This document shows, one piece after another, positions 3,902 through 23,569 of a stretch of 24,000 bases of DNA. The notes beneath the pieces are model-generated. The model did no database searches and was not told the DNA's origin. It worked only from the letters and a program-made list of their open reading frames with translations. The stretch's first letter is position 1, and every line of letters begins with the position of its first letter. Origin of the DNA: Candidatus Nanopelagicaceae bacterium (GTDB taxonomy: Bacteria; Actinomycetota; Actinomycetes; Nanopelagicales; Nanopelagicaceae); contig OZ254130.1 in NCBI GenBank assembly GCA_965268005.1, positions 977,858 to 1,001,857 of the forward strand, in the 5' to 3' direction. The translations under genes were made by a program, and so were the position numbers.

Positions 3902-5050
3902 TTAGCCGATCTTTGCAACCTGAGCGAGTGACTTCTTAAGAAGCTCACCATCGATTACAGAGAATCCAAGAGCTCCACCGACATCCTTTGAACACTTCGT
4001 ACTCAAGATGTAGTTTGCGAACTCCTTAACAGCCTTAGCCTTTGCTGCATCTGGATACTTAGTATCTGCAAGAAGGTAAGAAACGATACCTAGTGGGTAA
4101 GCGCCCTTTTCCTTAGTTGCATAATCGTAAGTTAGGTATCCGTTTGCATCCTGTGATGCTGATGCAAGGAATGCACCAACACCAGTTGAATCTGGCGCAA
4201 CAGATGATCCTGCCGGGTTGATCAAGTTAGCGATCTTCAACTTGTTAGCTGCTGCATAGTTAACTTCAGCATATGTGATTGAGTAAGGAGTCTTACCAGC
4301 GAGCTGAGCAACTCCAGTTGAAGATGCTGCACCAACAACGCGACCAAGGTTTGCAACATCATTGATGTTTCCTGGGAATGAATCCTTGAACACCTTGTTC
4401 TTCGACTTTGTCCAAACAGAGCCAGCTGACTTGTTTAGGTAGTTTGTGAAGTTTTCTGAAGTACCTGATGAATCTGAACGATACACAACCTTGATTGGCT
4501 GGTTAGGCATTGTGTAGTGACCTGTAATTGTCTGAGTACGTAGAACAACTGGGTTGCCCTTTGCATCCTTTGCAGGGTTGCCGTTCTTATCTAGCTTGTA
4601 AACAGTCTTTACGGTTGAACGGTTGTTATCAGCAACGATCGCTGGATCATTCCAACGGGTAATTGTTCCAGCGAAGATTCCTGCAACTGTTGCTGCTGAA
4701 AGATTAAGGGTTGTCTTTGCTGGCAAGTTGTGAAGGATTGCAATTGGAGCTGCAACTAGTGGAACGTGGATGAGTGAAGAACGCTTTGTTGATGCTGTGT
4801 AAGCACCATCAGACATCCAGAAGTCACCAATTGACTTATCTGAGTTTGATTGTCCTGTACCTGATGATGATGAAGCGTAAACATATGTGTGTGCTGTGCT
4901 TGATGCGAAACCAGCTTTGCAACCTTCGATCAAAAGCGCTGGAAAAGATGCGCCTGAACCTTGAAGATCAACTGCATAAGCTGGAGTTCCTGCTACCAAA
5001 CCGAACGCGAGTGCAAGTGATGCAACCTTCGCGAGCTTTGAAATTCTCAT
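3902..5050 (-). CDS. pstS: Phosphate ABC transporter substrate-binding protein PstS
   Basis: The ORF-track protein carries PstS-type motifs ('LQGSGASFPALL', 'YRSDSSGTSENFTNYL'). I prefer the start at ATG 5050 (MRISKLAKVASLALAFGLVAGTPAYA-VD signal peptide), preceded by the SD GAGGGGAAG, over the tracked start at 5086. Confidence 0.9.
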   Translation of the reverse strand: MRISKLAKVASLALAFGLVAGTPAYAVDLQGSGASFPALLIEGCKAGFASSTAHTYVYASSSSGTGQSNSDKSIGDFWMSDGAYTASTKRSSLIHVPLVAAPIAILHNLPAKTTLNLSAATVAGIFAGTITRWNDPAIVADNNRSTVKTVYKLDKNGNPAKDAKGNPVVLRTQTITGHYTMPNQPIKVVYRSDSSGTSENFTNYLNKSAGSVWTKSKNKVFKDSFPGNINDVANLGRVVGAASSTGVAQLAGKTPYSITYAEVNYAAANKLKIANLINPAGSSVAPDSTGVGAFLASASQDANGYLTYDYATKEKGAYPLGIVSYLLADTKYPDAAKAKAVKEFANYILSTKCSKDVGGALGFSVIDGELLKKSLAQVAKIG

Positions 5051-5085
5051 GTACTTCCCCTCATAGATGTTTGAACTACGGGGCA

Positions 5086-5162
5086 AACCTATGGAGCGAA
5101 AATGAACGAAGAGCGCTCGGAATCCGAACGCTCTTCGACATTTAGGTGAACAGTAAGTAAAC
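5086..5162 (-). promoter_or_regulatory. Candidate PHO-box array (six 11-nt units, four with GTTyry cores) plus a -10 TAGGTT for pstS
   Basis: Minus-strand units are GTTTACTTACT(5162) GTTCACCTAAA(5151) TGTCGAAGAGC GTTCGGATTCC(5129) GAGCGCTCTTC GTTCATTTTCG(5107). These are followed by CTCCA and then TAGGTT (5091-5086). The cores lie at 11/22/22-nt spacing. The last-unit-5 nt-TAGGTT geometry is identical to that upstream of phoU. Confidence 0.5.
5107..5137 (-). terminator. Strong hairpin between pstB and pstS; possible partial terminator or attenuator, overlapping the PHO-box array
   Basis: A 9-bp stem CGAAGAGCG/CGCTCTTCG (5107-5115 with 5129-5137) is extended by an inner 4-bp stem TCGG/CCGA. 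On the minus strand it is followed by TTCATTTTCG. Confidence 0.4.
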
Positions 5163-5165
5163 GAT

Positions 5166-6038
5166 TTAGCCGAATCGACCCGTCACGTAGTTTTCTGTGC
5201 GCTGATCCTTTGGTCGAGAGAAGATCTCGCTTGTTGGGGCGCATTCGACCATTTGACCGGGACCGCCATCGGAAAGGAAGAATGCTGTGTAATCAGATAC
5301 ACGTGCTGCCTGCTGCATATTGTGAGTCACGATAACGATTGTCATAGTGTCTGACAGGTGGCGAATAGTTTCTTCGATGCGAAGCGTTGAACCTGGGTCA
5401 AGTGCAGAACATGGTTCATCCATCAATAGAACTTGCGGGCGAACCGCTAGCGCACGTGCAATACATAGTCGTTGCTGCTGACCACCTGAAAGTGATCCAC
5501 CATGTGCGCCAAGGCGATCCTTCACTTCATTCCAAAGTCCTGCACGCTCTAGGCACTCTTCAAGAAGGTCATCCTTATTTTCAACCTTAAGTTGAGCAAG
5601 CTTTAATCCCGACAAAACATTCTCGCCAATAGACATTGATGGGAATGGGTTTGGCTTCTGAAATACCATTCCGATTTGTAAGCGAATCTTTGTTACATCT
5701 GTTCCTGGTGCATAAACATCTTTGCCATCTAGCAATACTTCGCCGGCCATGGCAGCACCTGGAATGAACTCGTGCATGCGATTGATTGTGCGAATGAATG
5801 TTGATTTACCGCAACCAGATGGTCCAATAAGCGCGGTTACTGTTCCTGCACCAAAGTTCAGATTGATGTCAGCAAGTGCGTGATGCTTTCCGAACCATGC
5901 ATGGATGCCACGTGTTTCTAGACCGGTACCCAAGGCACGCGTGCCAGGTACCTTTCCATTTGCGTTAGCAACATCGGCCAATGAACTTGGGCGAACCGCT
6001 GTATCCATGGTGTTCTCGCTTTCTTGTGAGTTAATCAT
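5166..6038 (-). CDS. pstB: Phosphate ABC transporter ATP-binding protein PstB
   Basis: Motifs present: Walker A 'GPSGCGKST', ABC signature 'LSGGQQQRL', Walker B '[11 protein letters not shown]'. I prefer the start at ATG 6038, which forms an ATGA overlap with the pstA stop. ATG 6008 (MDTAVRP) is an alternative. The tracked start at 6122 would overlap pstA by about 90 nt. Confidence 0.9.
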
Positions 6039-7078
6039 TTGGCACCTTTTCGTGAACCTAGATAACGTGCCGATGTAAACAGAATTAGTACAAGTCCTAC
6101 TAGAACCAATAAACCAGCCCATGCACGAGTAAGTGCTTCTGGTGAGCCAGCGTTAAATGACTTCCAGATGTAATACGGCAAAGAACCCATTGGGCCATTA
6201 AATGCATTTGGATTTACCTTGTCGCCACCACCGGTAAGCAACAGAATTGGCGCAGTTTCTCCGGCAATGCGAGCTACTCCAAGAATTACCGCAGTGATCA
6301 AACCGCTCTTAGCAGCTGGCAAGACAATCATTGCCACAGTGCGCCACTGAGTTCCACCAAGTGCAACGCCAGCTTCACGAAGATCATTTGGGATTAGATT
6401 CAAAACTTCTTCAGAGGTTCTAGCGATTGTTGGAATCATCAAGATTGTTAAAGCAAGGGCTCCCATGAATCCTGAGTATGCCTTTGTTATTGGATATAGG
6501 ACAGCTGACAAAATGAATAATCCAGCAACGATTGATGGAACACCGCTCATCGCTTGTACTAAGAATCGAATCGGTCCTGTGAAACGACCCTTGATCTCAG
6601 TGAGATACAGAGCGGTAAGAATTCCGATAGGTACGCTCATGATTAGTGCGAGTGCAACCAAAGTTATTGTTCCTGTGATTGCGTGCAGCAGTCCACCATT
6701 TGAAAGTGGATCTGTCGGTGTCGCCATAGACATATCGTGCGTAAAGATATTTAACTTAATACCAGGCAAACCCTTTTGTAGCACTGTAAATAAGATACTT
6801 GCAATTGGCATTACGGTAACGATTGCACCAATTGCAACAACTGAATTTACAAGTGCATCTTTAGCAGCAGCACTTCCACGTTGAATTCCCTTAAGCGATG
6901 CGGTTAAACCCATGTAAACGAAGAAGAAAACCGCAAAAAGTGCAAGCTTTCCCTTCATTGGGGTAATCGCAACTACTGCATATGAAGAAAGTAATGAAGC
7001 GATGAAGATGCTTAGATCGACTAATCGATCCTTCTTTGAAGCCTTCCAAGGCTTAGTTGGCTGCACAGTTGTACTCAT
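6035..7078 (-). CDS. pstA: Phosphate ABC transporter permease PstA
   Basis: 347-aa polytopic membrane protein with a PstA-type '[10 protein letters not shown]' region and the EAA-loop-like '[15 protein letters not shown]'. Its start overlaps the pstC stop in a 4-nt ATGA. Confidence 0.9.
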
Positions 7079-8052
7079 CGTCCCGACTTTCCTGTGCGCT
7101 TAACAATGACATTTGCAAGAGCGTTGACAACAAGTGTTAGCAAGAACAGAACCAAGCCGGCTGCCATAAGTGCCTTGATTTCATATGGGCTTGCATCGCC
7201 AAATTTCAAAATAATTAATGAGGCAACGTTTCCACCTGCGCCCAAAAGCACATGCCAGTTGACCTGGAAAACAATATTTAACACGGTGAAGACGGCAACG
7301 GTTTCACCCATTGCGCGACCAAGTCCCAACATCGCTCCACCAATGACACCACTGCGACCATGAGGAATAACAACAGCTTTGATCATTGCCCAACGTGTTG
7401 CGCCAAGTGCATATGCGGCTTGAATTCGATCGAGTGGTGCTTGTGAAAATACTTCACGAGAAACTGAAGTAATGATCGGAATAATCATGATTGCTAGAAC
7501 TACACCTGCAACGAACGGTGATCGGGTGTAGACCGGAACCTGCATATCAAATACAGGAATCCATCCAAGGTAACGATGTAAAAGCTTTGCCCAGTATTCA
7601 ACGCTGGGCATTAGAACTAAGAAGCCCCAAATACCAAACAAGATTGATGGAAATGCAGCCATCATGTCGATGATCGCAACCAAGAACTTCTTCAACCAAC
7701 CTGGCGCGTAGAAGTTAAGGAATAACGCTGAAAAAACCGAGATTGGCAAGGCAATAACCACTGCAACCAATGCGCAAAGAATTGTGCCCACAAGCATCGC
7801 TGCAAGACCAAAATGGCTTTCAGTTACATTGCCGGCGTCATCTGTACTAATTGACCAATCGGCGTGAGTAATGAAGCCAATGCCTTCTTGACGTAGTACT
7901 TCAAAGCCGCGATATCCCAAGAAGATTGCAATCAATCCAAGGATTACGAGTGAAGAAACTCCTCCGGCTGTAACAACAGCGCGAAAAATCTTGTCTGAAC
8001 GACGTGGTTCAGTAGTTAATTCGCGAGGTGATGGTGGAACAAGTGTGGTCAA
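7075..8052 (-). CDS. pstC: Phosphate ABC transporter permease PstC
   Basis: 325-aa polytopic membrane protein with the PstC-like 'MMAAFPSILFGIWGF' and 'AAYALGATRWAMI'. It starts 5 nt after the phoU stop. Confidence 0.9.
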   Translation of the reverse strand: MTTLVPPSPRELTTEPRRSDKIFRAVVTAGGVSSLVILGLIAIFLGYRGFEVLRQEGIGFITHADWSISTDDAGNVTESHFGLAAMLVGTILCALVAVVIALPISVFSALFLNFYAPGWLKKFLVAIIDMMAAFPSILFGIWGFLVLMPSVEYWAKLLHRYLGWIPVFDMQVPVYTRSPFVAGVVLAIMIIPIITSVSREVFSQAPLDRIQAAYALGATRWAMIKAVVIPHGRSGVIGGAMLGLGRAMGETVAVFTVLNIVFQVNWHVLLGAGGNVASLIILKFGDASPYEIKALMAAGLVLFLLTLVVNALANVIVKRTGKSGR

Positions 8053-8057
8053 TTTGC

Positions 8058-8708
8058 TTACGCAAACTTTCCTGTTACCAAGTAATACACGCGACGTGAT
8101 ACAGAAACCGCGTGGTCTGCATAACGCTCGTAGTAACGACCAAGAAGTGTCAGATCGATTGCGCTTTCAACTCCGTGCGCCCAACTTGGATCTACCAATG
8201 TTCTAATCAACTGGCGGTGAAGTTTGTCCATCTCGTCATCATCAGTTTCAACTTCTAAGGCAACCTGGGTATCGCGAGATGCAATTACTGAACCGGTCTT
8301 GCGTGCAATCTTTTCTGCAGCTTCACCCATTTGTTTGAAGCTTGCTGTTAGCTCAGCAGGAATCGCGGCATCAGGATGACGCAAGCGAGTAATTTTTGCG
8401 ACGTGATGAGACATGTCGCCCATACGTTCTAAATCCGCACTCATTCGAAGCGCAGTTACCAGCGCACGCAAATCTGAAGCAACTGGTTGCTGACGCGCAA
8501 TGATGTCGATGATGCGTGCATCAAGTGCATGCTGAAATTCATCGATGCTGTCATCTGTCGCAATTACCTCTTCAGCTAACTTCAAGTCGCTATTGAGAAT
8601 TGATTCAGTTGCCTTTGCGATTGAAATGGCAACCATGTCTGTGAGGTCAACTAGTGACTGAGAGACGCCATCTAGTTCATCTTGGAAAACTGATCGAATA
8701 AGAGCCAT
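8058..8708 (-). CDS. phoU: Phosphate signalling complex protein PhoU
   Basis: 216-aa two-repeat PhoU with 'SADLERMGDMSHH' and 'GRYYERYADHAVS' metal-binding motifs. Confidence 0.9.
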   Translation of the reverse strand: MALIRSVFQDELDGVSQSLVDLTDMVAISIAKATESILNSDLKLAEEVIATDDSIDEFQHALDARIIDIIARQQPVASDLRALVTALRMSADLERMGDMSHHVAKITRLRHPDAAIPAELTASFKQMGEAAEKIARKTGSVIASRDTQVALEVETDDDEMDKLHRQLIRTLVDPSWAHGVESAIDLTLLGRYYERYADHAVSVSRRVYYLVTGKFA

Positions 8709-8798: not shown

Positions 8799-9863
8799 GT
8801 GAAGTTCCTCCGCAAGGAAGCAGATGCGCCAGATGAGCGTGCGCTACCGAGCATGCTGCTGGAAACCCTGTCTCAGTTAGATGGCGAAGCGGTTGTTCTG
8901 GCAAATGGAGAAGTGCCGATCTTTACTACCCCCGGCATCGACCAGATCGGCCTTTTGCGTGATGGTCGAATTCAAAGTGCCGAGCTTCTAGCGACCGTTC
9001 GCGTTGTTCGCAGAAAGCACTCCCGACAAACAGGAGTAATAGAACTTCCCCGCGGGCCTATTGGTGAAGGTCGCCATGAATTAACGGTCAATGTAATTCC
9101 ACTTACCGAAAATGACTTAGTTCTTGTTTTGCTACGAGATGAAAGTGAAGCTCAACGTGTTGACGAAGTTCGCCGCGATTTCGTTGCCAATATTTCTCAC
9201 GAATTAAAAACACCAATTGGTGCGCTCTCGTTACTTAGCGAAGCCGTATTGGGAGCAAAGAATGATCCTGCTGCCGTCGAGAAATTTGCGACGAGAATGC
9301 AAACAGAATCAAAAAGACTTACAGATCTAGTACAAGAAATTATCAATCTTTCAAGGCTGCAAGACTCTGATCCACTGTCTGTGCCTAGTGAACTGCACAT
9401 TCAAGATCTCATTAATGAAGCGATTGATCAGAGCCAAGTCACCGCTGATAGTCGTCATATCTGGGTTTCCAATAGCGAAGTTGTTGATGGTCTAATTCTT
9501 GGTGATCGAGAACAGTTGATTATGGCGATTCAAAACTTGATTGAAAACGCGATTAACTATTCACCTGAAGGAACAAAGGTGAACGTCACTTCAACGGTTG
9601 ATGATGGAATCATCGACATTTCAATAACCGATCAAGGAATTGGAATTCCCGAGGCGGATTTAGATCGAATCTTTGAGCGTTTCTATCGTGTAGATCCGGC
9701 GCGCTCACGGCAAACAGGTGGAACAGGATTAGGACTTTCAATCGTTAAGCACGTAGCGCTAAAGCATGGCGGTGAGGTTAAAGTGTGGAGTGCCGAGAAT
9801 GTAGGCAGCACCTTCTCGCTTCGCTTGCCACTGTATGTACCTTCTGAGGAGATCGCACAATGA
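8799..9863 (+). CDS. senX3: Sensor histidine kinase, SenX3/PhoR-like, with no predicted transmembrane segment
   Basis: H-box 'FVANISHELKTPIGAL', N-box 'LIENAINYSPEG', G1 'DQGIGIP', G2 'GGTGLGLSIVKH'. The N-terminal ~130 aa look PAS-like and are not hydrophobic. An in-frame TAA at 8766-8768 prevents any N-terminal extension. An ATG at 'SMLLETL' is an alternative start. Confidence 0.85.
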   Translation: MKFLRKEADAPDERALPSMLLETLSQLDGEAVVLANGEVPIFTTPGIDQIGLLRDGRIQSAELLATVRVVRRKHSRQTGVIELPRGPIGEGRHELTVNVIPLTENDLVLVLLRDESEAQRVDEVRRDFVANISHELKTPIGALSLLSEAVLGAKNDPAAVEKFATRMQTESKRLTDLVQEIINLSRLQDSDPLSVPSELHIQDLINEAIDQSQVTADSRHIWVSNSEVVDGLILGDREQLIMAIQNLIENAINYSPEGTKVNVTSTVDDGIIDISITDQGIGIPEADLDRIFERFYRVDPARSRQTGGTGLGLSIVKHVALKHGGEVKVWSAENVGSTFSLRLPLYVPSEEIAQ

Positions 9864-10549
9864 CAAAGATTCTTATCGTTGAAGATGAGTCCTCATTTTC
9901 TGAAGCCCTGGCCTTCTTATTAGGTAAAGAGGGTTTTGAGGTAACTGTTGCTGAAGACGGCCGTCAAGCTTTAGATATGTATGCAAAAGATGGTGCAGAC
10001 CTAATCTTGCTTGATTTAATGATTCCTGTTGTATCTGGCATCGAAGTTTGCAGAACTATTCGCACAACTTCGCAAGTACCAATCATTATGTTGACCGCGA
10101 AAGATGCCGAAATTGACAAGGTTGTGGGTCTCGAACTGGGTGCTGATGATTATGTAACTAAACCTTATTCATCCCGCGAACTTATTGCTCGCATTAAAGC
10201 GGTCTTGCGTCGCGGAATCTCAGATGAATCATCGGAAGCTGAACATGGAATTCATACCGTTGCAGGTATCAAGCTAGACATTGGCAAGCACCAAGTAACA
10301 ATTAACGGTGAAGTTGTTTCACTCCCTCTTAAAGAGTTCGAATTACTGGAGTTCTTAATGCGCAATGCTGGTCGCGTACTTACTCGTTCGCAATTAATTG
10401 ATCGTGTGTGGGGTGGCGATTACTACGGCGATACAAAGACTTTAGATGTTCACATCAAACGCTTGCGTGCAAAGATTGAAGCAGATCCAGCAAACCCTGT
10501 TTTAATTCAAACAATTCGCGGACTTGGATACAAATTAGAAAGTAACTAG
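9860..10549 (+). CDS. regX3: OmpR-family response regulator, RegX3/PhoP-like
   Basis: The receiver domain reads 'MTKILIVEDESSFSEALAFLLGKEGFEV...LLDLMIPVVSG' and continues 'KVVGLELGADDYVTKPYSSRELIARIKAVLRR'. This closely resembles mycobacterial RegX3 as I recall it. The winged-helix C-terminus includes 'TIRGLGYKL'. Its start overlaps the kinase stop as ATGA. Confidence 0.9.
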   Translation: MTKILIVEDESSFSEALAFLLGKEGFEVTVAEDGRQALDMYAKDGADLILLDLMIPVVSGIEVCRTIRTTSQVPIIMLTAKDAEIDKVVGLELGADDYVTKPYSSRELIARIKAVLRRGISDESSEAEHGIHTVAGIKLDIGKHQVTINGEVVSLPLKEFELLEFLMRNAGRVLTRSQLIDRVWGGDYYGDTKTLDVHIKRLRAKIEADPANPVLIQTIRGLGYKLESN

Positions 10550-10627
10550 CGAGTGGCAGCACTCCGACTATCACTTTAGGGCTGTACCACTCACTCCCTT
10601 CTTCTTGTTCGACCATAAAATAGAGGC

Positions 10628-12163
10628 ATGACAACTCTAGAAAATATCCGTGAGAGTATAGAAAATCCAAAGTTCACCTATCGACAAAGAGTTGCCGTCC
10701 TCGCTAATTTGGCTGAAAATCTTCTTGATCCACCTCCTGTGCGAAAAGAGTGTCGCGAGGCACTAGAGGCACGAATTATTTGCGATATGTATGAAGGTAA
10801 CGCGCCATACCGTCCTCGCTATTTACTTCCTGATTACGCAATTGTCTTAGAAAACGGTTCAGCTTTTCTAGAATTACCTGCCGCAAAGAATCTAGATGAT
10901 GCTTTGGCATTTCTATTAATAATGTATTCCGCAACCCCCTCAATCACTGGATACCCTGTCTATTTCGGAGATCTCGATACATTGTTGCTGCCATATATCG
11001 AAGGTATTAGTGACGAAGATTTGTACGCAAAATTAAAGCGTTTCTGGATCAGCCTCGATCGAATGTTTCCAGATGCATTTGCGCATACAAATCTAAGTCC
11101 TGTGTATAACAGAGTCTCCAAGTTGATTCTCGCTTTGGAGCGCGAATTACTTCAGGTAGTACCAAACATAAGTTTAAAGGTGGATCCAGAATTAACTAGC
11201 GATGAGTACCTAATGGATGCGGTGAAGACTGTTTTTGCATGCGGTAAGCCACACTTCATAAACGATCCAATGATGCAATCAGATTTAGGTGCGCGCTATG
11301 CAGCGGTTAGTTGTTACAACTCCCTGAAAATCGGTGGCGGTTCACATACCCTGGTTCGGATCAATTTAAAAGCTACCGCAGAACAATGTAATGGAGGCAA
11401 GGATCAATTCTTTGATCAAACCCTCCCCCATTACCTTGATCTAACTGCAGAGCTCATGGAGTCACGCATCAACTATTTAGTTGAAGATTCCGGTTTTTAT
11501 GAAAGTAATTGGCTCGTGAACGAAAGATTATTGGATTTGGATAAGTTCTCAGCGATGTTTGGAATTTTCGGTCTAGCTGAGTGCGTCAACATTTTGATGG
11601 AGCGAGAAGGTGATTCAGGAACTTATGGTCACAGCTCCATGGCGGACGATCTTGGTTATGAAATTACTAGTTTCATTGCAAATTGGGCATCCCAGAGAAA
11701 GATGCCTTACTGCAATGGAAATAACGGTAGAGCGCTACTGCATTCACAATCCGGAATTGATCTTGATATCGGTGTGACCGCTGGTACTCGAATTCCAATC
11801 GGCACTGAACCTTCCTTACTAGAGCATTTGAAAACCGTTGGCCGTCATCACCATTTATTTGCATCTGGAATAAGTGATGTTCTGTCATTCGATGAAACTG
11901 CGGTCAAAAATCCTCTTGCCGTAGTAGATGTCATAAAGGGTGCATTCAAATCCGGGATGCGAGATTTCACCTTTAATTTAGACAGCAACGATTTCATCCG
12001 TATCACCGGTTACTTGGTACGTAAATCAGATTTACAGAAAATGCCCGCTGCTCGCCATAGCAGCACTTATTTGGGTGCGGGATCTGTTGCTGATTCTCAC
12101 GTCGACCAACGTAATGTGAAAAGAGTTGTGAGTCATGAAAGCTCGCCACGCACAGGTAGCTAA
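10628..12163 (+). CDS. Short glycyl-radical enzyme, YjjI-like (DUF3029 family), substrate unknown
   Basis: 511-aa ORF. A glycyl-radical-type motif 'FIRITGYLV' lies about 50 aa from the C-terminus (compare PFL RVSGY and NrdD RxCGYLG). A mid-protein stretch 'AVSCYNSLKIGGGSHTLVRINL' resembles an NrdD-like Cys loop. The size matches E. coli YjjI (about 516 aa as I recall). It is followed immediately, with overlap, by an activase gene. TAAAAT (10616-10621) sits 6 nt before the ATG. Confidence 0.7.
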   Translation: MTTLENIRESIENPKFTYRQRVAVLANLAENLLDPPPVRKECREALEARIICDMYEGNAPYRPRYLLPDYAIVLENGSAFLELPAAKNLDDALAFLLIMYSATPSITGYPVYFGDLDTLLLPYIEGISDEDLYAKLKRFWISLDRMFPDAFAHTNLSPVYNRVSKLILALERELLQVVPNISLKVDPELTSDEYLMDAVKTVFACGKPHFINDPMMQSDLGARYAAVSCYNSLKIGGGSHTLVRINLKATAEQCNGGKDQFFDQTLPHYLDLTAELMESRINYLVEDSGFYESNWLVNERLLDLDKFSAMFGIFGLAECVNILMEREGDSGTYGHSSMADDLGYEITSFIANWASQRKMPYCNGNNGRALLHSQSGIDLDIGVTAGTRIPIGTEPSLLEHLKTVGRHHHLFASGISDVLSFDETAVKNPLAVVDVIKGAFKSGMRDFTFNLDSNDFIRITGYLVRKSDLQKMPAARHSSTYLGAGSVADSHVDQRNVKRVVSHESSPRTGS

Positions 12164-12830
12164 TGTCATTCCATTCTCGTGGGTAGATGGTCCTGGAAAT
12201 CGCTTTGTACTTTTCTTACAAGGCTGCAATTTTAACTGCCTAGCCTGTCATAACCCTCAAACTATTCCTTTACATACACGTCGGGTACGAGAATTAACCG
12301 TTTCTGAAGTATTGGATCAGATCAAAGAATCTATGCCATATATATCCGGTGTCACCATTTCTGGTGGTGAAGCCACAGTTCAACATGAATTCATCGCTGA
12401 ACTGTTTACCGCAATAAAAGAGAGTGATGAGCTTTCGGCATTAACTACATTCATTGATAGTAATGGGAATGCCTCGTCCGAAGTCTGGGACCAGCTCGCC
12501 AAAGTTACGGATGGAATAATGCTTGATTTGAAGGCGCTGGATGAGCAGCGACATATTGAGCTGACCGGCAACACTAATTCAGTAGTTCTGGATTCGATCA
12601 AGCATCTTCAGAAACTTGGCAAACTGTACGAAGTTCGATTACTTCTTATTCCTGGCGTCAATGATTCCGATCAACAGTTGATTGATACAGCTGTGTGGTT
12701 AAAAAATATCGATCCTGCGATGCGCATCAAAATTAATGCATTTAAGACTCATGGTGTGAGGGCCGCAGCCAAAAATTGGCCGGAAGTCTGCGATGAGGAT
12801 ATGTCTCGGTACTCGGCAATTATTTCGTAG
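12135..12830 (+). CDS. Glycyl-radical enzyme activating protein (radical SAM, PflA/YjjW-like)
   Basis: 231-aa ORF with the N-terminal activase signature 'VDGPGNRFVLFLQGCNFNCLACHNP' (CX3CX2C) and the SAM-binding 'TISGGEAT'. It has only 4 Cys in total, so no auxiliary ferredoxin-like cluster insert. It overlaps the upstream GRE gene by 29 nt. Confidence 0.85.
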   Translation: MKARHAQVANVIPFSWVDGPGNRFVLFLQGCNFNCLACHNPQTIPLHTRRVRELTVSEVLDQIKESMPYISGVTISGGEATVQHEFIAELFTAIKESDELSALTTFIDSNGNASSEVWDQLAKVTDGIMLDLKALDEQRHIELTGNTNSVVLDSIKHLQKLGKLYEVRLLLIPGVNDSDQQLIDTAVWLKNIDPAMRIKINAFKTHGVRAAAKNWPEVCDEDMSRYSAIIS

Positions 12831-13314
12831 GGCTTTTGCGAATCATTCTTTGGTGAAACTTTCCGGGCTGACGAGTGCTTGGAGTGTCATCGCCAATTTT
12901 TACAAAACCTAATTTTTCGTAGGCGGCAATTGCGCTGTAGTTATCGATCCACACGCCTAGGCCTTGAACCTTCCAATCACGATCTTGGGCATCAACAAAC
13001 TGCATCATGGCTCGAAATAGACCGTTGCCCCGAAATGCAGGATCACTCCAACATCCACCAATCCAGCATGTGGCCCCAAAGTCTCCTTCAAGAACTTCGA
13101 GGTACATCATGGCTGCATCATGTCCATCAACGGATGCAACTAGGAACTCGTTCTTAATGAACTTTTCACGCCAAGTAGCTTCATCTTCAGCACTTTCCTT
13201 CTCAAAAGTTCCACCGAATGCTTCAGGGTTGGCTCTTAATGAACGAAGCCTTATGTCGCGAATGCGAGCCCATTGATCTGCATCAACTATTTCAACGAGA
13301 ACCTCTTGATTCAT
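12820..13314 (-). CDS. GNAT-family N-acetyltransferase
   Basis: 164-aa ORF with GNAT motif A 'FRGNGLFRAMMQFV' and the C-terminal 'AIAAYEKLGFVKIG'. It converges on the activase gene and overlaps it by 11 nt. Confidence 0.8.
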   Translation of the reverse strand: MNQEVLVEIVDADQWARIRDIRLRSLRANPEAFGGTFEKESAEDEATWREKFIKNEFLVASVDGHDAAMMYLEVLEGDFGATCWIGGCWSDPAFRGNGLFRAMMQFVDAQDRDWKVQGLGVWIDNYSAIAAYEKLGFVKIGDDTPSTRQPGKFHQRMIRKSPTK

Positions 13315-15463: not shown

Positions 15464-17122
15464 TTACTTAGTTACTGTGATTGCGAAGTGAATAGAAGGC
15501 AATTGATATCCAAGTGCCAATCCTGGGAAGTCACGATCAGCTGTCAAGATTGGAAGCATTCCGTAAGGAGTTCCCGCAAATGAAGGTTGATTTGTGTACA
15601 TCAATGGCCATAGATCGATGATGTGAGTTCCTGGCTTTCCTGTGGCCTTCAAGTGCACAACCATGTATCCATTTGAATTAAATCCACATCCATAACCAAT
15701 GTATGAGTTGTCATATGTAACAGCCAAAGTGTTATCGAGTTGTGTCCAACCCACTCCCTTGATTGCAATTGTGAACTCTTCTCCCGCTTTGAACTTATTT
15801 GTAGGTACTCCAGAACCATTGCGTGATTCAGGAAGTCCTGAAGGATCGGCCTTTGCAAGACCTGCACTTAAGACCTTCCCTTTGCTATCGACGTAATTGA
15901 AGATGCTCTCTTGTACATAGAAAGGAACTTGTGCCTCAATGACTCCATCCTTCTTTATCTGTACAACGTGCCATCCACCTAAGTGATCTGGAATCTGGAT
16001 CTCTTTTGTTATGTCAGCTGACTTAACATCAATAGTTCCTAGTGGAACAGAGTTGTAAACCCAGCAAGTTCCTGTGCAGTTAACTCGGTTACCAACAACA
16101 GTTGCCCATTCAATTGTGTGGGTTCCAGATGTAGTTAATCCCTTTACATCAAGACTTACCTTTGTATATACGGGCCCTGCATCCTTGGACAATGTTGCAA
16201 CAGCCTTTGTATTTGGGTCTAACCCAACTGATGACAATGTTGTCTTTTGAGTAACAGTTGGAGTTACCTTGTCGGGATATGTTAAGTAAGCCGCAGGTGC
16301 ACCAGCATCTTTTGTAACTGTAAAGGTCTGAGTGCCGCCATTAGCAAATGGAACAGGTGCTTGAATGATGTTCAAGTATGGAATTCCAATTCCATCCAAA
16401 ACATACAAAACATGCTTTCCAACCTCACCGGAAGCTCGGATTACTGCCTTACCTGTTCCGCGAGTCCATAGAGCCTGCATTTCACCGGCAAATTGATTGT
16501 CATACAAAACAGATCCACCAGCTGTGTAAAGGCTTGCGCCCATTCCTGTGTATGTAATTGTTATTGGAGTGCCAATTGGACCGCTCTTTGGAGAGATCGA
16601 AACGGTACGAAGCATCTGGTAGCCACCATGGGCTACAGCAACACCATCTACGACTGCATAAATATCATGCACACCACCGAAATCAGATGGCACCTTTGAC
16701 TTAAAGGTAAATCCACCATTTGCATCGGTAGTTACTGTCGCCATGTTGACGTAGAACTTGGTGTACTTGACGCCCATATAGTTGATCGTGTTTGGCTGAA
16801 CATCTGCCACCCAAGTACCTTCATTTGTGGACCACACCAAAGTCATTTGCTTATTTGGGGTTAAACCCTTTCCAATTACGGAAAAGGCACTTCCAACAAA
16901 ACCCTGCTGTGGTGTGACCTCTAGATTGACGGTTGTTTCAGGTGTTGTAAATGCTCCCGCCTTTACCGCTGTATATGGAAGTGGCGCAACACCTTTAATG
17001 TCACTTGGAGCTGTCAATGTGATCAGCGTGGAGGCTGTGTCGGCACCTTGTGCCGGCACAACCATCGCCATCGCTAGACCACAAGCAACTGCGATACGCA
17101 GTGCCAGTGTTCTCTTCTTCAT
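15464..17122 (-). CDS. Secreted protein with about four tandem Ig/IPT-like beta-sandwich modules; function unknown
   Basis: 552-aa ORF with the signal peptide MKKRTLALRIAVACGLAMAMVVPAQG-AD. A module pattern recurs: FSVIGKGL...GGVHDIYAV, ITITYTGMG...GKHVLYVL, VSLDVKGL...GGWHVVQI and FTIAIKGVG...GTHIIDLW. The SD AGGAGAGAG lies upstream. There is no LPXTG, lipobox or C-terminal TM segment. Confidence 0.75.
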   Translation of the reverse strand: MKKRTLALRIAVACGLAMAMVVPAQGADTASTLITLTAPSDIKGVAPLPYTAVKAGAFTTPETTVNLEVTPQQGFVGSAFSVIGKGLTPNKQMTLVWSTNEGTWVADVQPNTINYMGVKYTKFYVNMATVTTDANGGFTFKSKVPSDFGGVHDIYAVVDGVAVAHGGYQMLRTVSISPKSGPIGTPITITYTGMGASLYTAGGSVLYDNQFAGEMQALWTRGTGKAVIRASGEVGKHVLYVLDGIGIPYLNIIQAPVPFANGGTQTFTVTKDAGAPAAYLTYPDKVTPTVTQKTTLSSVGLDPNTKAVATLSKDAGPVYTKVSLDVKGLTTSGTHTIEWATVVGNRVNCTGTCWVYNSVPLGTIDVKSADITKEIQIPDHLGGWHVVQIKKDGVIEAQVPFYVQESIFNYVDSKGKVLSAGLAKADPSGLPESRNGSGVPTNKFKAGEEFTIAIKGVGWTQLDNTLAVTYDNSYIGYGCGFNSNGYMVVHLKATGKPGTHIIDLWPLMYTNQPSFAGTPYGMLPILTADRDFPGLALGYQLPSIHFAITVTK

Positions 17123-17167: not shown

Positions 17168-18118
17168 TTATGCCTTTGGTAGCGCAAAGAGAGTTAGCTG
17201 TGAAGCAGGCATAAAGTTTGACTGCCAAGTTCCTGTTGCACCTTTTAGTGGGATATCTAGTTTGACTGTGCGGTAGTAACTGACACGGTCATACACAGTT
17301 CCACCTGAAGCGTTAAGAACACGCTTTCCATTTTCCATACGTGGAACAAGCTTTGTTGAAAGAACTTTCATGGTTGTTGAATCTTTAGCAACCATGGTTA
17401 CCTTGAAGTTAATTACTCCAAGAGTGTTATACAAAGGTGCTGCACCAGTCTTTAAGACACCAGTCCAGAATGCTGCTCCGCTGTGATTTCCATATGACAT
17501 TTGAATTGGATCTTTAACACCTGCGATTTCTATGTAAGCCTTTGCAGTATTGGTTGAATCCATTACCGCTCCACCCTGATCAGAATTATTTGCATAAATG
17601 CGGAAAACAATTCCTTGACCAACGATGTACTCACTTTGTACAGCGCAGCTAACACCAAAACGTGGTGCAAGGGGTCCTGATGTTCCGCTCGCTAGCACTG
17701 TGTCTACATAGATATGAATTGGAGAAACAACGCCTTGAACAGGCACACCAATCTTCACATTGAGTGTGTTTCCGCTCGCTGGCGCGAAATTAACAGCATC
17801 TGTTGGAGTAAATGTTCCGGTAATAGCAGTTGCACCTGCAGCTGCTGGCACCCAAGAGCACTTTGCAACAAATGGGGTTACGGTTGTCGTTGCAACAGCT
17901 TCACAGCCTGTAACAATCTTGCCATTAACTGTGAATGCAACCGTTCCAGCTGCACTTGCAGTTCCGTTAATGATGATTGGACCTAGATCAAAGACACCAT
18001 TTCCGCCTGACATAACCAATGTTGAAGCAGCTGGCGCAGCAAGAGCTTGACCGCCAGTTGATACAGCACCGACAAGTGCTAGAACCGCTACTGCGATTCC
18101 TGAGATTACCTTTTTCAT
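17168..18118 (-). CDS. Secreted protein with an N-terminal bacterial Ig-like domain and an unknown C-terminal domain
   Basis: 316-aa ORF with the signal peptide MKKVISGIAVAVLALVGAVSTGGQALA-AP. The segment 'GTVAFTVNGKIVTGCEAVA...AKCSWVPAAAGATAITGTFTPTD' is Big_3-like. The SD AAGGAGAAATAA lies upstream. Confidence 0.75.
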   Translation of the reverse strand: MKKVISGIAVAVLALVGAVSTGGQALAAPAASTLVMSGGNGVFDLGPIIINGTASAAGTVAFTVNGKIVTGCEAVATTTVTPFVAKCSWVPAAAGATAITGTFTPTDAVNFAPASGNTLNVKIGVPVQGVVSPIHIYVDTVLASGTSGPLAPRFGVSCAVQSEYIVGQGIVFRIYANNSDQGGAVMDSTNTAKAYIEIAGVKDPIQMSYGNHSGAAFWTGVLKTGAAPLYNTLGVINFKVTMVAKDSTTMKVLSTKLVPRMENGKRVLNASGGTVYDRVSYYRTVKLDIPLKGATGTWQSNFMPASQLTLFALPKA

Positions 18119-18151: not shown

Positions 18152-18790
18152 TTATTTGGTCTTGATATTTCCGCTGACATCCATAGTGAATGCCGCAGTT
18201 TCTTTCGCTCCACCTTTAACACTGAATACGCCAGTAACCTTGAGATTTCCAGTTGCTCCTGCGTACTTACCGGTGCCACTTGTAATAGTTGCGCTTCCGG
18301 TGATTTTGATAGTTGTTGGAGCTGACTCATCTTCTGCGCAACCCTTTGATGAAGTATCAAAAGTTACGTTGATGGTGTTTCCGCCACCGCCGATAGAACC
18401 CTTTGCATCGAAGCCATCACATAAACCAGCAGGTGCTGCAGATCCAGAACCTGTCATATCTGTAAGTCCTAGAACATTTCCAGTTCCCTTAGCTGTTGCA
18501 GATGTAACTTGAAGGAATGTATCGCCCCAAACAATGTTGAGGCTTCCCTTGTAGTTACCTGAAAATGCAACAGTTCCGCCAGTTGCTGGTGCAGTTGTTA
18601 CCTTTGGCTTTGTTGTTGAATAACCGGTTGGGCACTTTGGTGAAGCTGCAGTTACCTTCTTTACTGTTGTGCCTTTATAGCAAGTGATTGTTTTACTTGC
18701 CGCATTTGCAGTTGCACCGTTTGCAAACAAGAAAGCTACTGCTGTAAAAAGAACAAGCGCCTTTGCTTTTCTTGAGTAAATTCTTTTCAT
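18152..18790 (-). CDS. Secreted protein with a Cys-bracketed N-terminal hairpin motif and a dirigent/AOC-barrel-like C-terminal motif; function unknown
   Basis: 212-aa ORF with the signal peptide ...FLFANGATANA-AS. It continues 'TITCYKGTTVKKVTAASPKCPTGY', then a Thr/Pro linker. The C-terminal 'ITSGTGKYAGATGNLKVTG' resembles the TGGTGxYxGAxG motif. The SD GGGAG lies upstream. Confidence 0.75.
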   Translation of the reverse strand: MKRIYSRKAKALVLFTAVAFLFANGATANAASKTITCYKGTTVKKVTAASPKCPTGYSTTKPKVTTAPATGGTVAFSGNYKGSLNIVWGDTFLQVTSATAKGTGNVLGLTDMTGSGSAAPAGLCDGFDAKGSIGGGGNTINVTFDTSSKGCAEDESAPTTIKITGSATITSGTGKYAGATGNLKVTGVFSVKGGAKETAAFTMDVSGNIKTK

Positions 18791-18953: not shown

Positions 18954-19853
18954 TTAGTTTGACTTTGCAATTCTTTCGCGAGCTACCTGCATCGCTGGTG
19001 GTTCAGGACCCAATATTGCTAAGAAAATGTCCAAGCTAACTCGTGAAACTCGAAGCCATAGCTTTGAACGCTTTTCCAATCCAAGCAGTGTCAATTCATG
19101 CTGATCTAATGTTGCAATTGCGGCATTTGAAATAACTTTGTAAAAGAATTTACCTGCACCATCAAATGGAGGGTTCAAAATAAAACGAACAACTTCGGCA
19201 GTTCGTGCAACAGTTGCCAAATCATTCTTTCGGAAATCATCAAGTGTGGCTTCTAATTCAGCGACAGACTTCGGAGCATTTATCAGACCAAGTGGGACGG
19301 CACTTTTGCTCCACTGAGCTACATATTCATCTGCGCCTTGGTCGATTGAATAACCTAGCGCAAGGTGTGCTTTCAAGAACGAGTCAGTGAATGCGCAGTG
19401 CACCCACAATAAGAATCGTGGATCTTTTGCTTTGTAGCTCTGATCATGTCCTTGTTTGTTCTTGAATTCACCTTTTACATGATCATGCATTGCATTGACT
19501 CGGGCTGCTTCTCGCTCAATAACTTCTGCTGCAGCAAATGTTGTAACCGTTAGCCAACGAGTTGTTCCTGCTAATCGGCCTAATGGATCAGATTCATATC
19601 GAGAATGTTCCGCAACGCCTGAAAGCGGAGCGGGGTGAGCGGCCTGCAATAAAAGAGCTCTGACTCCCCCAACTAAAGTTGCGATGCATCCATGTACTTG
19701 CCACACAGCGCTGCCTGGACCAAATAAACCAGGACCAGAACCGATTGCAATTGTGTTCACCCAATCAGGACGACCATCTTTAGATCCTGAAACATTCTCG
19801 CGGAACTTATCTGCCAGTGGCTTTGTCAGCGGAAACTTATGGAATTCAAACAC
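18954..19853 (-). CDS. MpaB/DUF2236-family oxygenase-like protein
   Basis: 299-aa ORF (GTG start) with the family-typical 'GGVRALLLQAAHPAPLSGVAEHSRYESDPLGRLAGTTRWL'. TACGAT (19865-19860) sits 6 nt before the GTG. Confidence 0.8.
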   Translation of the reverse strand: MFEFHKFPLTKPLADKFRENVSGSKDGRPDWVNTIAIGSGPGLFGPGSAVWQVHGCIATLVGGVRALLLQAAHPAPLSGVAEHSRYESDPLGRLAGTTRWLTVTTFAAAEVIEREAARVNAMHDHVKGEFKNKQGHDQSYKAKDPRFLLWVHCAFTDSFLKAHLALGYSIDQGADEYVAQWSKSAVPLGLINAPKSVAELEATLDDFRKNDLATVARTAEVVRFILNPPFDGAGKFFYKVISNAAIATLDQHELTLLGLEKRSKLWLRVSRVSLDIFLAILGPEPPAMQVARERIAKSN

Positions 19854-19895
19854 CGGGTAATCGTAGAAGCAGGCTTAATGCTGCGCCAATTGAAA

Positions 19896-20468
19896 TTATG
19901 AGCCGAAGTTTGTTTTCTTGTAAGGCTTTCCCTTTTGATCGTAGGTAATCCAGACACCTACCTGCTTGCCATTTTTGAATGTTCCAGAGCGCATGATTAC
20001 GCCATCTTTACGGAACCACTTCCAATCACCATGCATCTCTTCATTCTTAATCTTGCCAGTAGCCTTCAAGACTCCGTTTCCATAAAATTCTAGAAACTCA
20101 CCGGTCTTCTTTGGGTATGCAGCATTTAGCTGCTGAATTCTTACCTTAATAATCTTCTTTAATAGCGGCTTGGGAAATCTCTTGTCGACAGCAAAGTGAA
20201 TGGAACCTTTTGTTTGTTCGTATTGGGCAAGCTCTGCTTTTAAGAGCGAAGTCGTTGAGCCGCTATAAGGAAATACACTGTTGTGTTTCTTGTAGCCGTC
20301 ATAACCAAATACCCCAATGCCTTCAATAACAAAAGTTGGGATTCCGTATTTGATAGTTTCTGTTGCGGTCGGTAGTTCTGCTGCGATCATTTCGCGCAGG
20401 TTTTGAAGGATTGCGCGCTGCCCTATTTCGAACTTCTTCAGGTGCTTATCGACTAACGCCTTGCTCAC
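19896..20468 (-). CDS. DUF1801 (YdhG-like) domain protein fused to C-terminal MORN-variant repeats
   Basis: 190-aa ORF. The N-terminal ~115 aa look like DUF1801 ('IKYGIPTFVIEG...GSIHFAVDKRFP'). The C-terminus 'FYGNGVLKATGKIKNEEMHGDWKWFRKDGVIMRSGTFKNGKQVGVWITYDQKGK' fits MORN_2/YwqK-type repeats. Confidence 0.65.
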   Translation of the reverse strand: MSKALVDKHLKKFEIGQRAILQNLREMIAAELPTATETIKYGIPTFVIEGIGVFGYDGYKKHNSVFPYSGSTTSLLKAELAQYEQTKGSIHFAVDKRFPKPLLKKIIKVRIQQLNAAYPKKTGEFLEFYGNGVLKATGKIKNEEMHGDWKWFRKDGVIMRSGTFKNGKQVGVWITYDQKGKPYKKTNFGS

Positions 20469-20471
20469 GAT

Positions 20472-21104
20472 TTACTCCCGTTCGTTCCAAGCCGCATTAA
20501 TTGTCTCAACGAAGGCTTCCAAAGGTTGCGCGCCAGAAATTCCGTACTTCATATCCACTACAAAGAAGGGCACCCCTGTCGCCCCTAGTTGGGTAGCCAT
20601 GTCGCGGTCTGCCAAAACTTCATTTGTAAATTGATCTGATTCCAATACATTCATCACATCTACTGCTGGAATTCCAACAGATTCGGCAACTGCACAAATA
20701 TCTTGGTGAGAAAACAGAGGCAAAGAGTTTTCGAAGTAACTTGAATACATCGCTTCTAGTAATTCATCCTGCTTGTTGATAGTCGCTGCATAAAGAAGAA
20801 CTCGATGAGCATCAAAGGTATTGCCAGATAGGGTGTCATCGAGGTTGTAACAAAGGCCTTCGCCATCGGCTACCGCGCAAACATTTGCCTGCATCTCTTT
20901 TACTTGGTCTGCAGAAACTCTGTACTTTTCAGCTAAATGCTTTCCTGTTGGAACAACGCCTTGTGCATCTGGTTGTAATTGAAAAGCGCGATGGCGGATG
21001 ATGATTTCATCCTTGTGCTCAAAGCCAGAAAGAGCCTTTTCTAGACGGCGCTTTCCGATAAAGCACCATGGGCAGACAACATCAGACCACACATCAATAA
21101 TCAT
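20472..21104 (-). CDS. DsbA-family (FrnE-like) thiol-disulfide oxidoreductase
   Basis: 210-aa ORF with an N-terminal 'DVVCPWCFIGKRRLEKAL' CPWC active site and 'GVPFFVVD' near the C-terminus. There is no signal peptide. Confidence 0.85.
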   Translation of the reverse strand: MIIDVWSDVVCPWCFIGKRRLEKALSGFEHKDEIIIRHRAFQLQPDAQGVVPTGKHLAEKYRVSADQVKEMQANVCAVADGEGLCYNLDDTLSGNTFDAHRVLLYAATINKQDELLEAMYSSYFENSLPLFSHQDICAVAESVGIPAVDVMNVLESDQFTNEVLADRDMATQLGATGVPFFVVDMKYGISGAQPLEAFVETINAAWNERE

Positions 21105-21937
21105 GAATTAATCACGCCAGTCGCAAGAAGAACAAGAATTAATGAGCCAAGGCATACGCGATAAATAATGAATGGGAGGAAGCTCTTTGTGGATACAAAC
21201 TTCAACAACCACGCAATAACGATGTAGCCAATGACGAAGGCAACCCCAGTTGCGACTAGCGTTTCGGGGATCGAAAAGACATTTGGTGCTGCATCTGATG
21301 AAAAGGCATCCTTTAATTCATACAGGCCACTTCCAAAGACTGCAGGAAGGGCCAATAAGAATGAGTAGCGAAGTGCAGCTTCGCGGGTGTAACCAAGGAA
21401 GCGTCCCATCGCGATTGTTGCACCAGATCGAGATACTCCTGGAACTAGTGCAAGCGCTTGTGCTGCACCATACAAAATTCCATGTCTTGAATTGAGCTGA
21501 TCAAGTGTTCGTTCACTCTTGCCGACTTTGTCTGCAAAACCCAGAATCAATCCGAAGATGATCATTACTGACGCAATCAGCCAGAGCGAACGAAGATCGT
21601 TTGTAATGATGTCTTTACCTAGGTAGCCCAAGACAACGATTGGAAGGCTGCCAACAATAATAAGCCAACCCATGCAAGCTTGGCCCTTTCCTTCAGCTGA
21701 CAGTTCAGCACGGAGCAGAACTTGCTTGACCCACGACACCACAATTGCCTTGATGTCATTGCGAAAGAAAATAAGTACTGCAAGCTCGGTGCCGATTTGA
21801 GTAATAGCTGTAAATCGAGCACCTGGATCTTGGGCTTTATTCATGAACTCGCCCACGATGCGGATGTGTGCACTAGATGAAATAGGAAGGAACTCAGTAA
21901 GTCCTTGAACAATTCCTAAAAAGATTGCCGAGAACAT
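21101..21937 (-). CDS. uppP: Undecaprenyl-diphosphate phosphatase UppP (BacA)
   Basis: 278-aa polytopic protein with 'GIVQGLTEFLPISSSAHIRIV' and 'PGVSRSGATIAMGRFLG'. Its stop overlaps the DsbA-like start by 4 nt. Confidence 0.9.
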   Translation of the reverse strand: MFSAIFLGIVQGLTEFLPISSSAHIRIVGEFMNKAQDPGARFTAITQIGTELAVLIFFRNDIKAIVVSWVKQVLLRAELSAEGKGQACMGWLIIVGSLPIVVLGYLGKDIITNDLRSLWLIASVMIIFGLILGFADKVGKSERTLDQLNSRHGILYGAAQALALVPGVSRSGATIAMGRFLGYTREAALRYSFLLALPAVFGSGLYELKDAFSSDAAPNVFSIPETLVATGVAFVIGYIVIAWLLKFVSTKSFLPFIIYRVCLGSLILVLLATGVINS

Positions 21938-21992
21938 ACTGAGCCCCTGTCGCTATTAGTAGAGGTCAATAGTAACTAGTGCGCCAAGAGAT

Positions 21993-22982: not shown

Positions 22983-23014
22983 TGTTATTTCTCCCTTGAC
23001 TCGCGTAATTGTTT

Positions 23015-23112
23015 AACGTGGCCAAGGTCTCCCTAACCGTAAAACGGCCAGCGCCCCGGGTTTTTACACCGTATTGACGAGGTAGCTGTATCTAGGTACT
23101 CCCCTTAATTAA
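23015..23112 (-). promoter_or_regulatory. yybP-ykoY (Mn2+) riboswitch in the TerC leader
   Basis: The minus strand reads UUAAGGGGAGUACCUAGAUACAGCUACCUCGUCAAUACGGUGUAAAAACCCGGGGCGCUGGCCGUUUUACGGUUAGGGAGACCUUGGC. It contains the conserved blocks GGGGAGUA, GUCAAUAC and GGGAGACCUU. The P1 helix pairs UUAAGG with CCUUGG. TerC-family genes are a classic regulated target of this riboswitch. Confidence 0.75.
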
Positions 23113-23146
23113 TTTAATTCTAAGGGGGCTTTAAGGGTGGCGCAAA

Positions 23147-23551
23147 TTAATACGCGCCTGTTGGTACTTCCTGATTTTCTAAAATTGCCCATTCAGCATC
23201 GGTAAATAAGCGTGAGCGAATCAAGAATCGTTTACCTTCGGGTGATTCGAGAGAAAAACCACCACCGCGACCATCCACCACATCAACGGTTAGATGCGTG
23301 TGCTTCCAATACTCAAATTGAGAAGCCGACATCCAGAAACCAATTGGCTCCTGAATGCCGGCTACTACCAAATCCCCGAGCTTTACATCCTGACCCCCGA
23401 CGCGGAATTCGCCAGCTGGGTAACACATTGGAGAAGATCCATCACAGCATCCACCTGATTGATGAAACATCAATGGGCCATGAATTGAAGTTAATTTTCG
23501 AAGAAGTTCTTCGGCAGTTTCACTTAATTCAACGCGTGATGGATTCTCCAT
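23147..23551 (-). CDS. DUF779-family protein
   Basis: 134-aa ORF with the family hallmark 'GPLMFHQSGGCCDGSSPMCYPAGEF'. It lies directly downstream of an aldehyde dehydrogenase, which is the usual genomic partner. Confidence 0.85.
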   Translation of the reverse strand: MENPSRVELSETAEELLRKLTSIHGPLMFHQSGGCCDGSSPMCYPAGEFRVGGQDVKLGDLVVAGIQEPIGFWMSASQFEYWKHTHLTVDVVDGRGGGFSLESPEGKRFLIRSRLFTDAEWAILENQEVPTGAY

Positions 23552-23569
23552 GTCTTAACTGTAATCGGC

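Follow-up and report, generated by a model that had tools for sequence, protein, structure and literature searches.

A YjjI/YjjW-family gene pair for a predicted glycyl-radical enzyme and its short activase in Candidatus Planktophila

The 24,000-nucleotide stretch of contig OZ254130.1 analyzed here (positions 977,858 to 1,001,857, assembly GCA_965268005.1; “the window”) contains two overlapping genes on the forward strand, which we read as a self-contained YjjI/YjjW glycyl-radical enzyme (GRE) system in the genome of a Candidatus Planktophila. According to this reading, to which we assign a probability of about 0.88, the pair has its own leaderless promoter, and the overlap between both genes probably couples their translation. 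The first gene (10628-12163, + strand) encodes a 511-residue enzyme of the YjjI family. The second gene (12135-12830, + strand) encodes a 231-residue radical S-adenosylmethionine (radical-SAM) activase of the YjjW type, in a short form that lacks the ferredoxin-like insert. The pair belongs genuinely to the YjjI/YjjW family. This assignment as such is not new, as databases already list the family by name and several close metagenome homologues carry the JGI or NCBI label “YjjI family glycine radical enzyme”. Three aspects go beyond a routine annotation: a probably single loss of the insert, the conserved leaderless promoter together with an overlap that is shared with Escherichia coli, and the constrained retention of the pair in oxygen-respiring plankton.

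Family membership and fold of the enzyme

The family model PF11230 (“Glycyl radical enzyme YjjI-like”) matches the 511-residue protein with E = 1.4e-194 and 647.4 bits (cutoff 23), and TIGR04040 matches with 675.7 bits (cutoff 498.3) over profile positions 2-497 of 497. This is in agreement with the initial annotation of the window, which had placed the protein in the YjjI/DUF3029 family from the nucleotide sequence and its translations. The motifs, the sizes of the open reading frames (ORFs), the 29-nt overlap, the 78-nt gap upstream and the TAAAAT-6 nt-ATG arrangement named there are likewise all in place. The only other domain match of the enzyme is a marginal and partial one to PF13597 NRDD (29.5 bits, cutoff 26.2, residues 182-356), and none of the Pfam PFL-like or Gly_radical domains was matched at E <= 0.01. 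Among 1.84 billion representative sequences the family is compact, with 476 clusters (50% identity level) at E <= 0.001, many of which are fragments.

In a pairwise alignment the window protein and E. coli YjjI are 45% identical over 507 amino acids, and they have the motifs VSCYNSL and R(V/I)TGY(M/L)VR in common. The first motif contains Cys229 (within AVSCYNSL, codon at 11312-11314), the predicted thiyl-radical cysteine. The second contains Gly461 (codon at 12008-12010), the predicted glycyl-radical site, which lies in the sequence FIRITGYLV, continued by an arginine, 50 residues before the C-terminus and aligns with Gly465 of E. coli YjjI. To judge their conservation we consider an alignment of 25 sequences, which are 32-91% identical to the window protein and include E. 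coli YjjI. Both residues singled out in the initial annotation, Gly in RITGY and Cys in SCYNS, are invariant throughout. The alignment has 30 invariant columns, among them S228, C229, N231, R458 and G461 in the two motifs and, outside of them, E56, R64, D144, H153, N180, R244, E299, H372, Q374, R388 and R495. At Y230, 90% or more of the sequences agree.

A further hint towards the nature of the enzyme arises from its predicted structure. A sequence search of the PDB with the 511-residue protein gave no match at E <= 1. The AlphaFold model, for whose calculation 19 sequences of 54-70% identity were added, has a predicted local distance difference test score (pLDDT) of 87.5 and a predicted template modeling score (pTM) of 0.88; it replaced a first model which was based on a shallow alignment (70-98% identity) and had a pLDDT below 50 in the Gly domain. 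Cys229 and Gly461 are located at or beside the turns of the modeled beta-hairpins 224-228/231-234 and 456-459/462-465, with Cys229 at a hairpin tip. If the model is compared to the PDB with Foldseek, the top 50 matches are all GREs, so that the predicted GRE barrel fold is borne out: class III ribonucleotide reductases (RNRs) rank first (query TM-score, TMq, 0.69-0.72; E ~1e-16), followed by PflD, YbiW, PFL, dehydratases and succinate synthases. The first, shallow-alignment model gave the same picture. In 2024, PflD and YbiW structures that contain bound sugar-phosphate ligands became available in the PDB.

With class III RNR as the nearest solved fold, the pair might be taken for a compact variant of this anaerobic reductase accompanied by an NrdG-like activase. 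The marginal NRDD match points in the same direction, as does the hhalign profile alignment, which places Cys229 on Cys384 of E. coli NrdD (PMGCRSF) and thereby supports the NrdD-like Cys-loop that had been suspected from the sequence; moreover, the activase is single-cluster, as is NrdG. We nevertheless regard an RNR as very improbable. The second essential cysteine of NrdD (Cys175 in E. coli) stands opposite a gap in YjjI, and Cys229 is the sole invariant cysteine of the family. The C-terminal four-Cys zinc ribbon is missing, with no cysteine past residue 362, and the domain search yielded no match to an ATP cone. The identity to NrdD structures amounts to only 12-14%, E. coli encodes both NrdD and YjjI, and the activase stays far under the NrdG cutoff (95.5 vs 131 bits). 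The 511-residue enzyme is NrdD-like in its fold but not a ribonucleotide reductase.

A reading of the pair as a defence system was also considered and rejected. PADLOC gave no match for the enzyme, and for the activase only a weak, generic radical-SAM similarity (viperin).

The short activase and the overlap of both genes

The 231-residue protein matches PF04055 Radical_SAM (E = 2.8e-21), PF13353 Fer4_12 (E = 2.2e-15) and, with 253.8 bits against a cutoff of 250.2, the YjjW-family activase model TIGR04041. The remaining GRE activase models score far under their own cutoffs. The protein therefore passes as a radical-SAM activase of a GRE, as had been proposed. Its N-terminal region reads MKARHAQVANVIPFSWVDGPGNRF...GCNFNCLACHNP and includes VDGPGNRF at residues 17-24, the N-terminal DGPG motif of GRE activases. 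Only four cysteines occur in the whole protein. Three of them form the motif CX3CX2C (C31, C35 and C38, codons within 12225-12248) and are the predicted ligands of a single radical-SAM [4Fe-4S] cluster; the fourth, C219, varies among homologues.

The match to TIGR04041 is split in two stretches because the ferredoxin-like insert is absent. This becomes evident from the alignment with E. coli YjjW (38% identity), in which one clean gap of 42 residues follows residue 44 of the window protein. The gap removes CNDCGECVPQC...CEQCDTCLKRC, an eight-Cys ferredoxin-like insert with two CX2CX2CX3C cluster motifs. The initial annotation had named such an insert in E. coli YjjW and had noted its absence here, correctly in both respects.

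The short form was also thought to be special to this copy, and this part of the claim does not hold. We surveyed 80 yjjI loci. In the actinobacterial-type loci (L001-L074) the activase encoded 3' of yjjI has 231-261 residues and 3-6 cysteines and is insert-less where its start could be cleanly called; activases with the insert occur in L075-L080 and have 11-17 cysteines. Anoxybacter fermentans and a second NCBI genome encode 287-residue activases with Fer4 domains. If the YjjI sequences are arranged in a neighbor-joining tree rooted with E. coli, 64 out of 64 insert-less loci fall into one clade, whose members are essentially all Actinomycetota and which has no long form inside. A single loss of the insert at the root of this group is therefore probable. 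The short activase is derived, a trait of this one clade, of which the copy in the window is a typical example. In its architecture it has become convergent with PflA and NrdG, having arisen by loss of the insert within the YjjW lineage.

In all 72 loci with enough flanking sequence the activase gene lies directly 3' of yjjI. The 3' end of the enzyme gene and the 5' end of the activase gene overlap by 29 nt (12135-12163, + strand), and the same length is found in most actinobacterial loci as well as in yjjI/yjjW of E. coli K-12 (L081, 9516-9544). This overlap probably couples the translation of enzyme and activase. We further observe that its exact length is kept between the window and E. coli despite a protein identity of only 38-45%; in Anoxybacter the overlap is 26 nt long. 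On the other side of the activase gene a GNAT acetyltransferase gene (12820-13314, − strand) converges on it with an 11-nt 3' overlap. This neighbor is not conserved: among the loci in which yjjI follows the response-regulator gene regX3, described below, L001 alone has it, and most carry an aminotransferase-like gene there instead, as judged by eye.

Promoter and phosphate neighborhood

The gene pair is preceded by a gap of 78 nt, which extends from the end of the response-regulator gene (10549) to the ATG of yjjI (10628). The hexamer TAAAAT (10616-10621, + strand) and the six nucleotides AGAGGC stand directly before the ATG, a −10-like box in a leaderless arrangement. Exactly 6 nt before the ATG a TAnnAT box is present in 23 out of 23 aligned Planktophila loci, with variation in the six spacer bases, and no Shine-Dalgarno sequence was found in the aligned intergenic regions of Planktophila. 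In the wider set, 60 out of 74 loci have TAnnnT 6-7 nt before an in-frame start, regardless of the gene upstream; at random positions of the same loci the frequency is 0.9%. The leaderless promoter suggested in the initial annotation thus gains strong comparative support. As the box keeps its distance of 6-7 nt whichever gene lies upstream, it can be argued that the pair is an autonomous transcription unit, which appears to have a leaderless promoter of its own.

The remainder of the gap (spacer, 10550-10615, + strand) contains a second conserved element, GAGnGnCAGCACTC, directly after the stop of the regulator gene (10551-10564). It is found in 23 Planktophila loci (L001-L022, L040), and in only some of them it makes a GCACTC...GAGTGC hairpin with a T-run. 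Between this element and the −10 box nothing is conserved in the aligned Planktophila intergenic regions that might represent a PHO box, consistent with the earlier remark that none was visible upstream. The statement that the gap lacks a convincing terminator also stands: a consensus scan found none in the 78 nt, and the best hairpin is no better than that of shuffled sequence (z = −0.41). In related loci terminator-like hairpins after regX3 are inconsistent and restricted to some of the loci.

Upstream of the spacer lie a phosphate-type histidine kinase gene (8799-9863) and the gene of the OmpR-family response regulator (9860-10549), both on the + strand. Both proteins score under all NCBIfam equivalog cutoffs, and the names SenX3 and RegX3 are to be regarded as provisional. 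Divergent from them, on the − strand (3902-8708), are phosphate transport genes, which encode in this order PhoU, two permeases, an ATPase and a phosphate-binding protein. The layout of phoU, kinase and regulator resembles that of phoU and phoR-phoP in Streptomyces.

Against this background the pair could belong to a Pho or SenX3-RegX3 regulon, being either co-transcribed with or controlled by the two-component system, and might carry out a phosphorus-related radical reaction. The pair lies on the same strand as the regulator gene, 78 nt 3' of it and with no convincing terminator between, phoU and the pst genes are adjacent, and 22 related Planktophila loci have retained the arrangement. A tblastn search with the flanking proteins of the window located phoU, kinase and regulator directly upstream of yjjI in these 22 loci (L001-L020, L022, L040), which form a single subclade in the YjjI tree. 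The arrangement is absent in the other Planktophila lineages (L021, L023-L028, L032-L034, L059) and in every other taxon surveyed; sister lineages and all other Actinomycetota have unrelated neighbors next to a pair whose −10 box is conserved all the same, and between the post-stop element and this box the alignment shows no conserved candidate for a PHO box. Data from other bacteria tie the genes to anaerobiosis and nitrate, not to phosphate: E. coli yjjI falls in the same bicluster as narG, together with FNR- and NarL-like motifs (PMC3228777), and in Yersinia intermedia yjjI and yjjW are induced 4.3-fold and 2.1-fold under anaerobic conditions (PMC3792023). As the linkage to regX3 is limited to one subclade of Planktophila, the phosphate link, which the initial annotation itself had called speculation, is unlikely. 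We consider membership in such a regulon improbable, and the position beside regX3 most likely reflects local gene order, not Pho regulation.

The rest of the window is described for completeness. The G+C content is 43-45%, with values of 41-50% along the window and no local shift at the gene pair, and neither Rfam matches nor tRNA genes were found in the 24,000 nt. A stop-free frame of more than 849 codons (3-2549, − strand) runs off the left window end; its last residues resemble a LuxR-type helix-turn-helix (…ELEILKHLSTGIPISAIAKQLHISQNTMKTHLRNVYRKL), and by eye it looks like a large MalT/LuxR-like regulator. Three consecutive ORFs 3' of an MMPL transporter gene (15464-17122, 17168-18118 and 18152-18790, all − strand; 552, 316 and 212 residues) have no Pfam match at E <= 1e-4. 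The region 18954-23905 (− strand) encodes an MpaB/Lcp-like oxygenase, a DUF1801+MORN protein, a DsbA-like protein, UppP (BacA), TerC, a DUF779 protein and the 3' part of an aldehyde dehydrogenase, with no evident relation to the pair.

Host, proposed chemistry and relation to known systems

A genome scan found relatives of the enzyme in 361 species-level genomes. The best ones are metagenome-assembled genomes of Candidatus Planktophila (acI-A, Nanopelagicales) with 76-88% identity, followed by other Actinomycetota with 61-72% (Dactylosporangium, Nocardioides, Planomonospora, Jatrophihabitantaceae). Outside of this phylum Trueperaceae and one Verrucomicrobiales metagenome-assembled genome reach 60-63%. 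In metagenomes, more than 120 clusters (90% identity level) are at least 70% identical to the window protein. The host is Candidatus Planktophila (acI), which specifies the streamlined actinobacterium that had been suspected and is, on ecological grounds, an unexpected host for such a pair. Planktophila, considered a strict aerobe, ranks among the most abundant bacteria of fresh waters.

In comparisons with twelve relatives the nonsynonymous divergence (dN) is 0.09-0.20 for YjjI, 0.18-0.29 for the activase, 0.12-0.17 for RegX3 and 0.21-0.26 for SenX3. The synonymous divergence (dS) is saturated in almost all pairs (> 2 or not computable), and the comparison rests on dN, not on dN/dS ratios. 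The values point to strong purifying selection on YjjI, about as strong as on RegX3. This has a bearing on the notion that the pair is a decaying or idle relic without present function, which could be put forward for an aerobic, streamlined genome, for planktonic hosts that are not found in anoxic samples and for an activase that is missing a domain. However, about 70 loci have both ORFs intact, and the gene is kept in streamlined genomes of less than 1.5 Mb (genome size from PMC12817590). Rather than a recent lesion, the loss of the insert is an old event that affects the whole clade. A decaying relic is ruled out by the low dN, as low as that of the response regulator, the invariance of all catalytic motifs, and the conservation of promoter box and 29-nt overlap; taking everything together, we give the idea hardly any credence.

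How the two proteins may work together can be deduced from the established chemistry of GREs, from which we infer the mechanism, including radical formation itself. The 231-residue activase would bind one [4Fe-4S] cluster via C31, C35 and C38 and would reductively cleave S-adenosylmethionine to a 5'-deoxyadenosyl radical, which would take a hydrogen from Gly461 of the 511-residue enzyme. The glycyl radical stored there could be handed to Cys229 on the presumably facing finger loop, and the resulting thiyl radical might then abstract a hydrogen atom from the substrate. An enzyme of this kind would presumably be active only under anoxic or very low-oxygen conditions.

The substrate may well be the same across the YjjI family, because 30 columns show no variation all the way from E. 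coli to Planktophila, and the invariant set, rich in Arg, His and Asn, would be compatible with an anionic small molecule. A full-text literature search found no functional assignment for YjjI/DUF3029, and in August 2026 YjjI was still termed a putative glycyl-radical enzyme awaiting characterization (bioRxiv 10.64898/2026.08.13.742689). We also clustered the flanking ORFs (±6-7 kb) of the 80 loci in search of neighbors that hint at a substrate, and beyond the activase nothing is conserved with the pair. The flanking clusters represent local synteny blocks only, with genes that by eye encode aminotransferase, decarboxylase, phosphoglucomutase, MscL, gyrase-like, TldD/PmbA and CysK proteins. 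The window itself adds no substrate clue.

Several points weigh against the self-contained GRE system proposed here and must be kept in mind. The activase clears the TIGR04041 cutoff by just 3.6 bits and does so without a feature found in E. coli YjjW. With no terminator between regX3 and the pair, read-through from the operon of the phosphate regulator may occur. For no YjjI protein has a glycyl radical been reported by electron paramagnetic resonance, nor any turnover, and no substrate is assigned (bioRxiv 10.64898/2026.08.13.742689). Cultured Nanopelagicales respire oxygen and are not recovered from anoxic samples (PMC12817590), which makes it hard to say when an oxygen-labile enzyme could be active.

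Gly465 of E. coli YjjI, the counterpart of Gly461, was labeled by a radical probe in live cells (bioRxiv 10.64898/2026.08.13.742689). According to a 2025 survey of cultured Nanopelagicales, which does not mention radical enzymes, all isolates respire aerobically; it lists cytochrome bd in some Planktophila and a nitrate reductase in P. vernalis (PMC12817590). Our full-text search for literature linking glycyl-radical enzymes with Planktophila or Nanopelagicales returned nothing.

It is tempting to go one step further and to regard the Planktophila pair as a hidden low-oxygen or anoxic capability, in which an essential radical reaction would be shared with E. coli and the ancient loss of two auxiliary Fe-S clusters from the activase would be an adaptation that allows arming of the system where conditions are mostly oxic. 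We think that this proposal is rather unlikely. The pair hints at a possible low-oxygen side to acI physiology. It is intact, constrained and autonomously transcribed, as it appears, in streamlined aerobic plankton and distributed vertically within the Actinomycetota, which speaks for a core reaction with a common metabolite as substrate rather than a gut- or fermentation-specific one. With a 511-residue enzyme and a single-cluster activase of 231 residues, the Planktophila pair might also provide a small experimental system for the family.

Among known systems, YjjI (b4380) and YjjW (b4379) of E. coli are the obvious reference. The enzymes are of similar size (511 residues here, 516 in E. coli), the gene order is the same with the activase directly 3', the overlap of 29 nt is identical, and both activases possess the DGPG and CX3CX2C motifs. 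The differences lie in the 42-residue, eight-Cys insert of E. coli YjjW, which the window activase does not have, in the apparently leaderless promoter of the window pair and in the neighboring genes, which are deoCABD in E. coli and regX3 and the GNAT gene in the window. The hosts differ as well, E. coli being a facultative anaerobe and the window host an aerobic, streamlined freshwater actinobacterium.

Structurally the best match is NrdD (PDB 8p2s, 9dca, 1h7b). It shares the 10-stranded GRE barrel, the finger-loop cysteine (C229 here, C384 in E. coli NrdD) and the position of the glycyl motif near the C-terminus. In contrast to NrdD, with which it has the mentioned 12-14% identity, YjjI is approximately 100-200 residues shorter and has neither an equivalent of Cys175 nor a zinc ribbon nor an ATP cone.

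On the side of the activase, PflA (TIGR02493) and NrdG have the same single-cluster architecture of about 230-250 residues, with CX3CX2C alone and without a ferredoxin insert. The window activase aligns collinearly with the PflA profile (residues 14-208 on profile positions 8-202) but reaches just 149.6 bits where the cutoff is 231.75, and by sequence the protein belongs with YjjW. PflB, PflD/YbiW, CutC and glycerol dehydratase share with YjjI the general barrel fold (TMq 0.6-0.73) and the logic of a radical relay from Gly to Cys. YjjI lacks the Cys-Cys pair of PFL, and compared to the PFL-type GREs it is approximately 250-300 residues shorter and has Asn instead of Glu two residues past the catalytic cysteine.

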